Part shown: positions 15,508-60,929 of the stretch, piece by piece
How positions within the stretch are numbered: position 1 is the first letter of the stretch
Layout of the letters: every line of letters starts with the position of its first letter
NCBI GenBank assembly: GCA_951406725.2
Contig: OX597819.1
Span: 61,442,001-61,506,000 of the forward strand
Origin: Octopus vulgaris
Lineage: Eukaryota
Length of the DNA: 64,000 nt
Direction: 5' to 3'
Translations under genes and position numbers: made by a program
The notes under the pieces: model-generated
Database searches by the model: none
Seen by the model: the letters and a program-made list of their open reading frames with translations, nothing else
What the model was told of the DNA's origin: nothing

Positions 15508-17795
15508 GACAAACAAAAGAAACCTCAGGTAATTAAGATAATCAATCTCTCAAACAAAGAACTTACACCTAACGAAATAAGCATACTCTCCAAAGGACTT
15601 AAATTTACACCTATCCCACAACGTTCTAATTACTATGAAATGAAAGATGATATTTCGGAATTTTGCAGAAAACTAAGACTCACCAAGGCATTTCAAGACA
15701 AACAAATAGAGGAGGACTCAATAGCTAGAAACAAGAGCAATTACACCCCCACCAAGGGAAAGAATAAAGCCTTAGACCGCTATTGTGACTACATAACTAA
15801 TTTCCCGTTTCAATTCATCAAGAAACAAAAACACAGCCCTAACTTCAACAAAAGAGAATGGAACGACCTCATCAAACTAAGAGAAGACAAAACAATAACA
15901 ATTAAGGAGGCAGATAAGGGCAACGCGATAGTAATAATGAATACAAACGATTATAAAAATTTAGTGCTATCCCTATTAAGAGAGGAAACGTATTATGAAA
16001 GGGCCCAACAGTATAACCAGCAAAAAATAATGCATAACCTTAGGACATTAATCAACACATACCAAGAAAGACTCACGAACAAGGAGTATGAATACATCAC
16101 TAACTTCAAATGCAAATCGAGTTTGTTCTATGGTATCCCTAAGGTACACAAAAGCCAAACCATTAGAGAAACGTGCAAAACATCCACCGACACACTCATC
16201 AAAATCCCTTCACCAAATGATCTTAAACTAAGACCGATAATAGCAGGGCCAGCATGTGAAACTCACCGCCTCAGCAATTTCTTAGACACACTTCTTAAAC
16301 CTTTCCTAAAACACATCAAAAGCTACGTAAGAGACGATATAGATATGCTCAACCACCTCCCTAAAACAGTCAATGAGAAAACCCTTCTAGTATCATTCGA
16401 CGTAGTTAATCTTTATTCTAACATCCCTCACAACCTAGGAATAGAAGCGATCACCTTCTGGCTGAATAACTAGCCCTTTGAACTCCCAACTCGCATAAAC
16501 AAAGACCTTATAATAGAAGGACTTAGATTCATTTTAGAGAACAATTATTTTATTTTTGACAATGATTTCTACAGGCAAAGATCGGGAACAGCGATGGGCA
16601 CGCGTACTGCACCATCTTTTACCAACCTAGTGATGGGATACCTCGAGAAAATACTATACCGGATAACACTCGAGAAATATGGAAACACCTTCGCCACCTA
16701 TATCCATAACAACTGGAAAAGATACCTCGATGACTGTTTCATCATCTGGGACAAAGGTATAGAGAAACTTGAGGAATTTAAAATACTATTAAATGGAATA
16801 AATGACAATATACAATTCACGATGGACCACAACGAAAAAGAATTACCATTTTTAGACATCCTCATTAAGAAACCGGCAACAAAATAGAGACAGATATCTA
16901 CTATAAACCGACAGACTCTAAACAGTACCTACCCTTTGATTCATGCCACCCACGACACACTAGAATGAATGTCCCTTTTTGTTTAGCTAGAAGGATTTGC
17001 ACCATAATATCAGACACAAACACCCGACACACACGTCTCCAGGAACTTAGAACCACACTCACAAATAGAAACTATCCACAGCCCCTAATAGACAGTGCAA
17101 TGCAACGGGTACTTAAATTAAGTATAGAAGACCTGAGACAAACAAAACCAAAAAAGAAAGAACAATTAAAAACCCTTCCCTACATCTCTACACACAACCC
17201 ACTCAACAATGAGGCCTTCAACACCATACTACAAAGCACAGCCCTACTAAAGGGAGACCCAAAGATGAACCGGATCCTCGAAACACACACCATCATTAAA
17301 AGTAAACGGCAACCAAAATCCTTGAAAAGGATTTTAACCCAAGCTACACTGCACTCAACATCAACCACAAAACCAGCAGTTAGAAAATGTGGAAGGCCCA
17401 ACTGCGGAATCTGTGTCATCTTGAAAGAAGGATCAGAATTTATACTGGAACAAGGCCACCAGTTCACCATTAGAACAAACTTCACCTGCGCATCAGAAAA
17501 CTTAATTTACGTCATAACATGCGCAGGCTGCAATAGGCAGTATATATGCCATACAAAAAATAGCTTACGTAACAGGATGGCGGTGCATAAATCACAAATT
17601 AGAAACCCTGATTACCGCAAAATACCGGTCAGCGGACACATAGATAGATGTGCTGGAAATGTAAATCCGAAATTTACAACTAACCCGCTCTATAAATTCA
17701 GTGACAACGCAACCTTCACACAACGCCAAAATAAAGAACTATATTTCATAAAAAAATTTAGACCAAGTTTAAACACCCTGGGCCAGGAATACTAA
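15508..17795 (+). pseudogene. Disrupted Penelope-like RT-GIY-YIG ORF
   Basis: One reading frame broken by TAG at 16471-16473 and a frameshift near 16872 (LIKK / TGNKIETDIYYKP). The YIG motif reads YIC. Confidence 0.88.
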
Positions 17796-59240: not shown

Positions 59241-59304
<64 letters not shown>

Positions 59305-59419
59305 ACAGCCGAAATTTGCCATGATGAATCGGTTTCTGACTGAAGAACGAAGGCTCTGAATTACTGTCCGTTTTTCCGTGTTTGTCAATTCGTGAATTTC
59401 ACGTTCTTTATATATGTTT

Positions 59420-59461
<42 letters not shown>

Positions 59462-59675
59462 CTATAAAAAATCTCTAAAAGAGATATAGACAGTAACTGC
59501 TCGATAACATAAGGGACTAAAGCCATCTGAATATGGCTAGGGACAGGGCAGGGTGGTGGGGGTGTTACTGTTGCATTTAGCCCCAGGCGAAAATCGACGT
59601 CACCAGAAAGGCTAGACACCGTCACGGTGTCCTTATCCTGCAAAGGGAGGTAATTCCCCGATGAAGCGGAAACCA

Positions 59676-59721
59676 CACACGGACCATGGTTTCAAGGTGT
59701 ATTGCCTATCGTCGGCGTGTG
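59676..59721 (-). ncRNA. Type I hammerhead motif, CCGACGA core variant (unit 1)
   Basis: Minus strand CACACG-CCGACGA-TAGG-caataca-CCTT-GAAAC-CATG-GTC-CGTGTG: 6-bp stem I, palindromic stem III ACCATGGT, GUC triplet. Confidence 0.72.
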
Positions 59722-60035
59722 GTAGGCTTCCGCTTCCTCGACGAATTCTCACTCTGCAGGATTTTCACATATAGATTTTCAAGCAAAATACATTTGCTGA
59801 TTTCGAAAATCTGTTCGAAAGCAATAATAATTCTCTAAAAGAGATATAGACAGTAACTGCTCGATAACATAAGGGACTAAAGCCATCTGAATATGGCTAG
59901 GGACAGGGCAGGGTGGTGGGGGTGTTACTGTTGCATTTAGCCCCAGGCGAACATCGACGTCACCAGAAAGGCTAGACACCGTCACGGTGTCCTTATCCTG
60001 CAAAGGGAGGTAATTCCCCGATGAAGCGGAAACCA

Positions 60036-60081
60036 CACACGGACCATGGTTTCAAGGTGTATTGCCTATCGTCGGCGTGTG
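60036..60081 (-). ncRNA. Type I hammerhead motif (unit 2)
   Basis: Identical to 59676-59721. Confidence 0.72.
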
Positions 60082-60395
60082 GTAGGCTTCCGCTTCCTCG
60101 ACGAATTCTCACTCTGCAGGATTTTCACATATAGATTTTCAAGCAAAATACATTTGCTGATTTCGAAAATCTGTTCGAAAGCAATAATAATTCTCTAAAA
60201 GAGATATAGACAGTAACTGCTCGATAACATAAGGGACTAAAGCCATCTGAATATGGCTAGGGACAGGGCAGGGTGGTGGGGGTGTTACTGTTGCATTTAG
60301 CCCCAGGCGAACATCGACGTCACCAGAAAGGCTAGACACCGTCACGGTGTCCTTATCCTGCAAAGGGAGGTAATTCCCCGATGAAGCGGAAACCA

Positions 60396-60441
60396 CACAC
60401 GGACCATGGTTTCAAGGTGTATTGCCTATCGTCGGCGTGTG
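60396..60441 (-). ncRNA. Type I hammerhead motif (unit 3)
   Basis: Identical to 59676-59721. Confidence 0.72.
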
Positions 60442-60867
60442 GTAGGCTTCCGCTTCCTCGACGAATTCTCACTCTGCAGGATTTTCACATATAGATTTTC
60501 AAGCAAAATACATTTGCTGATTTCGAAAATCTGTTCGAAAGCAATAATAATTCTCTAAAAGAGATATAGACAGTAACTGCTCGATAACATAAGGGACTAA
60601 AGCCATCTGAATATGGCTAGGGACAGGGCAGGGTGGTGGGGGTGTTGCTGTTGCATTTAGCCCCAGGCGAACATCGACGTCACCAGAAAGGCTAGACACC
60701 GTCACGGTGTCCATCGGGGAATTACCTCCCTTTGCAGGATAAGGACACCGTGACGGTGTCTAGCCTTTCTGGTGACGTCGATGTTCGCCTGGGGCTAAAT
60801 GCAACAGTAACACCCCCACCACCCTGCCCTGTCCCTAGCCATATTCAGATGGCTTTAGTCCCTTATG

Positions 60868-60929
<62 letters not shown>

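Follow-up and report, generated by a model that had tools for sequence, protein, structure and literature searches.

Structure of the insertion

The window analysed here is a stretch of 64,000 nucleotides from the Octopus vulgaris genome (contig OX597819.1, positions 61,442,001 to 61,506,000), in which a (TA)n tract is interrupted by a tandem of 360-bp units ending in an inverted arm. The locus raises the question of what kind of element this is, which enzyme inserted it and from which template. A previous sequence-only reading had described it as a retrozyme-like element, that is, a recently inserted non-coding tandem carrying one hammerhead motif per unit and propagated by rolling-circle copying.

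Tandem Repeats Finder reported a repeat at 59460-60712 with a period of 360, 3.5 copies and 99% matches, and comparison of unit against unit revealed 1 variable position in 360 among the three full units and 1 in 161 for the partial unit, so the tandem of near-identical units described earlier is real. The element delimited in the sequence-only reading is the same one, but its true ends lie a few bases farther out, at 59460 and 60871, with (TA)n on either side. Likewise, the inverted arm is present but is 160 bp rather than 157 bp in length; it is 100% complementary to both 59864-60023 and 60224-60383. Stop codons occur in all six reading frames of the unit, which bears out the earlier view that there is no credible ORF, and all three hammerhead motifs were found on the minus strand at the coordinates first proposed for them. 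Since both flanks are pure TA, a target duplication is unreadable at this locus. The parts of the insertion are listed below; unit bases are numbered on the minus strand from the first base 3' of the predicted cut (C17 being plus-strand position 59682, 60042 or 60402), and the definition of the 'tail' was taken from PMC11167929.

59423..59459, no strand: (TA)n target tract, left flank
59460..60712, minus strand: long arm, a tandem of 3.48 units of 360 bp that starts at unit base 50 and has its fixed end at base 222
59460..59503, minus strand: 44-base 'tail', unit bases 179-222, at one end only, with 3 substitutions in this copy
59676..59721, minus strand: first copy of the type I hammerhead motif, predicted to be cut after C17 at 59682
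59995..60125, minus strand: predicted rod, unit bases 277-360 and 1-47; its tip bears the hammerhead, and arms stall at the base of the rod
60036..60081, minus strand: second copy of the type I hammerhead motif, predicted to be cut after 60042
60042..60401, minus strand: complete cut-to-cut monomer (predicted 360-nt RNA); a second monomer lies at 59682-60041
60396..60441, minus strand: third copy of the type I hammerhead motif, predicted to be cut after 60402
60712..60871, plus strand: inverted arm, unit bases 19-178, with the second fixed end and a 1-base overlap with the long arm
60872..60925, no strand: (TA)n target tract, right flank

The (TA)n that holds the element is the terminal tract of a short dispersed repeat at 59296-59422. 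This repeat has a 96% match in one of the fetched loci (L286) and matches of 78-84% in three other places; a decayed hammerhead-like motif was seen in it by eye, and it is possibly a remnant of a Penelope pseudo-LTR.

A young dispersed family

The genome searched was a 2.8-Gb assembly of 227 contigs. With the 360-bp unit as query, 1046 candidates were obtained, and the 40 of them that were scored all proved to be arrays whose full units are 97-100% identical. Exact patterns gave 1414 hammerhead 23-mers, 441 base-222 junctions and 531 base-178 junctions genome-wide, while the reversed-pattern controls gave 0 matches. We concluded that the element is one insertion of a young, dispersed, non-coding repeat family. 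The genome-wide search for copies proposed with the sequence-only reading thus disclosed a dispersed family, with arms that have random 5' ends, and not a unit confined to one locus; its claim of a recent insertion agrees with the youth of the family.

A sister family, 79% identical, has the same two ends (bases 178 and 222), and both belong to a clade of related families with units of 355-360 bp in the same genome. At least four further related retrozyme families were noted (loci L072-L097, L278-L337 and L358-L387); the number of candidate matches or motif hits is around a thousand or higher for each of them. What they have in common is a helix surrounding the base-178 site and, ahead of the base-222 site, a small hairpin; these two structures are candidate binding elements for a reverse transcriptase (RT). 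Seven copies of one sister-family insertion on contig 31 (L279-L283, L285 and L289) have shared flanks and are 95-98% identical over kilobases, being a segmental repeat on a small contig. A separate hammerhead repeat, whose stem II is long and whose stem III is the same, occurs at L074, L075, L088 and L089 and is not clearly related to the clade.

The hammerhead motif

In the motif, stem I is 6 bp long and stem II, which rests on a U-U, is 3 bp long; the other parts are the core CCGACGA, GAAA, stem III, which is palindromic, and UC as the cut site. It deviates from the canonical form by U4C in the core and by the U-U mismatch at the base of stem II; U4C is reported as a natural variant with considerably lower activity in vitro (PMC3088659). 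The Rfam search by which the sequence-only reading had proposed to confirm the motif failed for this element, as no hammerhead match came up either in 7 kb searched at E<=1 or in 101 nt searched at E<=10, and a strict scan of the element for the canonical motif gave zero matches. An older relative with a canonical core matched Hammerhead_HH9 with 22.7 bits (E 6e-4), short of the gathering score, which is 52. Because neither Rfam nor the strict scan gave anything for the element, the hammerhead call rests on covariation with its relatives.

Among 18 hammerheads chosen from three related families in the same genome, 92.5% of cells were paired, against at most 37% in the slid-structure controls, and two-sided changes were found at 8 of 14 pairs; the structure derives from the element itself and the aligned hammerheads are kin, so that counts from the shuffles should not be read as probabilities. 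Covariation is seen in stems I and II and at the pair C3-G8, which changes to U3-A8 among these hammerheads, a covariation already known (PMC3088659). Stem III occurs in five different sequences, every one of them palindromic (581 of 590 motif matches, counted in fetched stretches that partly overlap). The recurrent changes within the family fall at ribozyme positions 3, 4 and 7 and in the stem III loop, where they keep the palindrome. These patterns indicate a type I hammerhead under structural selection, and the palindrome maintained through five variants is what would be expected for cleavage as a dimer, a trait on which the sequence-only reading had relied. With dispersal and absence of coding capacity, they support its retrozyme interpretation.

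We infer self-cleavage activity from this conservation. Against it, 8 of 9 Xenopus retrozyme dimers are reported to have failed to cleave in vitro (bioRxiv 2026.07.22.740005), and insertion of an anole Penelope-like element is reported not to have needed hammerhead cleavage (PMC11167929).

The hammerhead is predicted to sit at the tip of a rod, as had been proposed. The rod folds at -67.5 kcal/mol (z = -8.7), and a fold as good was seen in 0 of 200 shuffles; the circular fold of the whole 360-nt monomer is predicted at -121 kcal/mol. The rod and unit fold is common to the sister family, with two-sided changes at 7 of 108 pairs.

Two unlike fixed ends and the proposed mechanism

The integration footprint was examined at 124 loci, comprising the 40 arrays and 84 stretches that an end pattern had singled out, most of them on contigs 1-3, after duplicates and alignments of <90% identity had been dropped. 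Of 224 arm ends, 102 lie exactly at base 222 and 95 exactly at base 178, giving two fixed ends 44 bases apart on the unit. Arms joined head to head formed 96 pairs; 83 of these combine the two kinds of end (a 173-178 end joined to a 216-222 end), one end is atypical in 11, the stretch ends inside the pair in 2, and none joins like with like. Nearly all exact ends (185 of 197) abut ATATATAT / (AT)n. Target duplications of 12-13 bp are clear at 5 loci where the TA is imperfect; of the 13 candidate duplications containing a non-TA base, those other than the five clear ones are 10-32 bp or ambiguous in TA.

The inverted arm had been seen in the sequence-only reading but treated as incidental, yet it is the most informative part of the insertion, because it would represent a second cDNA with its own fixed start and so points to a Penelope-like enzyme. 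Penelope-like elements are described as carrying a tail at just one end, together with a truncated copy in inverted orientation (PMC8557442, PMC3846280). According to PMC11167929, the tail lies between two internal RT start sites, which bound it in vitro, both target strands are cut and extended, and the protein is predicted to be a dimer. The octopus footprint, likewise with a one-ended tail and an inverted arm, bears this Penelope-like signature.

The explanation we favour, to which we assign a probability of about 0.68, is that the element is a non-LTR retrozyme whose copying is the work of a dimeric Penelope RT-endonuclease, with both target strands serving as primers on one RNA, probably a circle. 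Transcripts of an array would very likely cleave themselves as double hammerheads through the palindromic stem III, and the monomers would probably be ligated to circles that serve as the usual template. The enzyme acting in trans would very probably be a Penelope-like GIY-YIG RT, with the Neptune type the most likely, and would nick the two strands of the (TA)n target about 12 bp apart. For the last step we lean towards a dimer that holds one RNA asymmetrically, starts at bases 222 and 178, and continues a joint run until the two cDNAs are joined head to head.

The template: circle or linear multimer

The predicted cut site is crossed by 156 of 227 arms, with no excess of stops at it (4 in 1664 at risk, p=0.32), and 338 of 339 units keep the exact spacing across it. 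As the cut site has neither a stop excess nor scars, copying of linear monomers by jumps from end to end was rejected. An excess of stops was found at the base of the rod (28 in 5730, p=2e-6), which suggests an RNA template with the predicted fold.

Of the 72 loci with at least three passes, 63 are non-mosaic. Seven loci have a rare variant in all of 3-9 passes, in both arms in five of them, and four (L032, L196, L203 and L159) have variants in some passes only, in register in both arms. A monomer circle would explain the non-mosaic loci, the variants in every pass and the growth of arrays. The partial variants at the four loci cannot come from such a circle; they may reflect heterogeneous multimer templates or later conversion between the inverted arms. 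The rolling-circle copying proposed from sequence is thus consistent with the random 5' ends and with the read-through of the cut site, but 4 of the 72 loci fit a heterogeneous multimer better.

These four loci speak for the same two-site Penelope priming on an uncleaved linear multimeric transcript of an existing array, which we consider unlikely. Unprocessed RNA is reported as the dominant substrate in vitro for the anole element (PMC11167929), and U4C may slow cleavage, both of which would suit such a template. However, a linear multimer cannot lengthen arrays, yet both arms can be multimeric and reach up to 14.7 units (median lengths 1.3 and 1.0); it also sits badly with the rare variants that fill every pass at seven loci, with the predominance of non-mosaic loci and with a hammerhead under structural selection, and the in-register cases could themselves stem from conversion.

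Circles are shown for coral, mussel and axolotl retrozymes (PMC7229834). Twenty sequencing runs, none of them recorded as RNA, contain the stretch, their RNA origin being a guess; contigs from four of these runs cover 30 of 30 bins of one monomer and have the head-to-tail joint in 4 of 4, a joint that tandem DNA would also give, so that we give these contigs no weight.

Rare template-level variants show A>G at 20 of 89 A positions versus T>C at 6 of 104 T positions (p=0.001), whereas the single-pass variants comprise 8 A>G and 15 T>C. Several A>G sites (unit bases 295, 296, 304 and 313) recur on different haplotypes, and among the A>G variants neither a neighbour nor a pairing preference was found. 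A-to-I edits of the template copied into DNA are a possible source, offered as a lead only; tolerance of G-U pairs or an error bias of the RT may also be behind the excess.

The search for a partner enzyme

Two young autonomous Penelope-like families, with frames of 775 and 811 codons and ending in (TA)n, were found in the genome. They leave the same kind of footprint: all 9 readable inverted pairs of the first family and 7 of the 8 of the second unite a short end with a long one, the exception being a pair with two long ends (L340). The tails, read by eye, are about 32 and 42 bases, with two further stretches ambiguous. The 775-codon frame gave an RT match of 29.5 bits (cut-off 29.6) and a GIY-YIG match. 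Both families are called Neptune-type from the cysteine linker before the GIY-YIG domain, not from a tree.

An autonomous element homologous to the unit was not found in these two families, the ones sampled in detail among about 20,000 candidate Penelope-type matches, and the unit had no nucleotide match at E<=0.05 in 20 autonomous loci. Pattern and DNA searches for relatives of a partner returned only more retrozyme families. No fixed ORF accompanies the unit: in a scan of 14, the ORFs of at least 200 codons near insertions are unrelated or belong to neighbouring Penelope or Tc1 fragments. For three related families, the stretches retrieved numbered 159, 60 and 30, and Penelope protein matches occurred in 7, 5 and 1 of them, respectively; their positions varied.

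The tail, inverted copy, TA target and hammerhead are all features of Penelope pseudo-LTRs, and the hammerhead in the pseudo-LTR of the 811-codon family has the U3-A8 core and 6-base palindrome of the sister family. The unit could be viewed on these grounds as the pseudo-LTR of an autonomous Penelope-like element and the loci as its 5'-truncated copies. We hold this to be very improbable: units are joined directly in their long arrays without an intervening ORF, Penelope protein matches are as rare and variably placed as stated, and the nucleotide comparison with the autonomous loci gave nothing. The unit also has no RT plus GIY-YIG ORF, and the element is, to judge from its sequence, not an autonomous Penelope-like element but, on the reading we favour, a substrate of one.

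The 775-codon family also occurs in exact tandems with a period of 4271 and many identical copies (L338, G000:C1:27840500-27850400). It is therefore very young and may itself be copied from a circle; a canonical hammerhead was not found in its unit. Within the window, a broken Penelope-type gene with RT and GIY-YIG domains lies at 15541-17795 on the plus strand, with the break near 16860; it is 52-59% identical to the 811-codon family, and its 3' region consists of short repeats and TA.

Origin of the inverted arm

In a systematic sample of 50 pairs from 68 loci, the lengths of the two arms were correlated (rho 0.71); the 178 arm was the longer in 20 of these pairs, and both arms exceeded one unit in 19. 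The correlation was absent among 24 pairs selected for whole units (rho -0.22). One locus (L158) has 14.7 and 8.4 units in its two arms. Between the two arms of one locus, 15 of 1716 polymorphic calls differ, versus 23% in 1000 shuffles. The two arms thus carry one common haplotype from unlike starts, and two cDNAs made together on one RNA would fit both the haplotype and the arm lengths.

An inverted arm would also result if a single cDNA folded back and primed itself, with trimming by the endonuclease at base 178; self-priming was proposed for rotifer elements (PMC3846280), and in 14 of the 83 pairs the arms stop at the same template position to within 10 bases, where 5.8 such pairs were expected. 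Nevertheless, the other 69 junctions are asymmetric and either arm can far exceed the other (10.9 versus 1.0 units at L046, besides the 20 of 50 pairs above). Since copying back along one cDNA cannot give such unequal arms, there is very little to recommend this explanation. A local satellite, or an assembly chimera that created the inverted arm, might account for near-identical units and a palindromic junction but is refuted by hundreds of dispersed loci with the same two exact end junctions, by the target duplications and by the same ends in the sister family.

A tentative generalisation of two-site priming, on which we would not insist, is that Penelope-like enzymes integrate by double rolling-circle priming, in which an asymmetric dimer on one circular RNA uses two starts 44 bases apart, one for each nicked target strand, and the two cDNAs proceed round the circle in company. 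If so, one mechanism would account for the pseudo-LTR tandems of all such elements as well as for their tail and inverted copy, the hammerhead would serve to make the circle, and the A-to-G excess would reflect A-to-I edits of the circle written back into the genome. PMC11167929 describes the start sites of the anole element as alike on both strands, which counts against the explanation favoured above.

Comparison with known systems

Every testable criterion of a non-LTR retrozyme was found in this family: non-coding tandem units within about 150-450 bp, a type I hammerhead in each full unit, dispersal with target duplications longer than 4 bp, and a highly self-paired monomer. The features of a Penelope substrate are also present, namely two fixed internal 3' ends, an inverted 5'-truncated copy adjoining the 5' end and an AT-rich target.

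The metazoan retrozymes described by Cervera and de la Pena (2020, PMC7229834), with units of 350-390 bp in mussel and 330/350 bp in axolotl, resemble the octopus element in their tandem non-coding units of a few hundred bp with one type I hammerhead each, short palindromic stem III, self-paired monomers, arrays from dimers to multimers and co-occurrence with Penelope-like elements. They are presented there as direct tandem repeats, in contrast to the two head-to-head arms with fixed, unlike ends of most insertions sampled here, and the octopus core is U4C. Cleavage and circles are demonstrated for them and predicted for the octopus element.

Endonuclease-bearing Penelope-like elements (Penelope/Poseidon, Neptune and Naiad; PMC11167929, PMC8557442, PMC3846280) share the one-end tail, the inverted 5'-truncated copy, AT-rich or (TA)n targets, a type I hammerhead and start sites downstream of the ribozyme. 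Their optional tail is given as 30-40 bp, slightly shorter than the 44 bases here, and target duplications of rotifer elements as about 8-10 bp, compared with 12-13 bp. The octopus element differs from them in having no ORF and in that both arms are concatemers of the 360-bp unit.

Dependence of animal retrozymes on Penelope-like elements was proposed in 2020 (reviewed in PMC7761336) and is supported by a 2026 preprint on Xenopus retrozymes (Li, Clavereau and Pollet, bioRxiv 10.64898/2026.07.22.740005), which likewise concludes that retrozymes are non-autonomous Penelope partners. In that preprint, the evidence is co-occurrence and similarity, without analysis of a 'tail' or inverted arm, while ours is the integration footprint. 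A full-text literature search, covering sources other than subscription papers and the supplement of PMC7229834, returned no description of a two-armed retrozyme with a tail or of any retrozyme in a cephalopod. The retrozyme class is known, and the footprint and its mechanistic content are new.

The retrozyme-mobilising enzyme, the role of circles as transposition intermediates and the origin of the Penelope tail and inverted copies are stated as open in the literature. Hundreds of young, near-identical insertions now tie a retrozyme to Penelope chemistry independently of sequence similarity. The family offers a 360-nt substrate, two mapped start sites and candidate intact enzymes, and because all of these are available in one genome the mechanism is directly testable.

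A further observation in the window concerns positions 33595-48375, where about 15 kb of telomere-type repeats lie inside a 135-Mb contig. There, (AACCCT)n at 33595-36021 faces (AGGGTT)n and degenerate GGCCA-type variants extending to 48375, and the block resembles an interstitial telomere block or a fusion.
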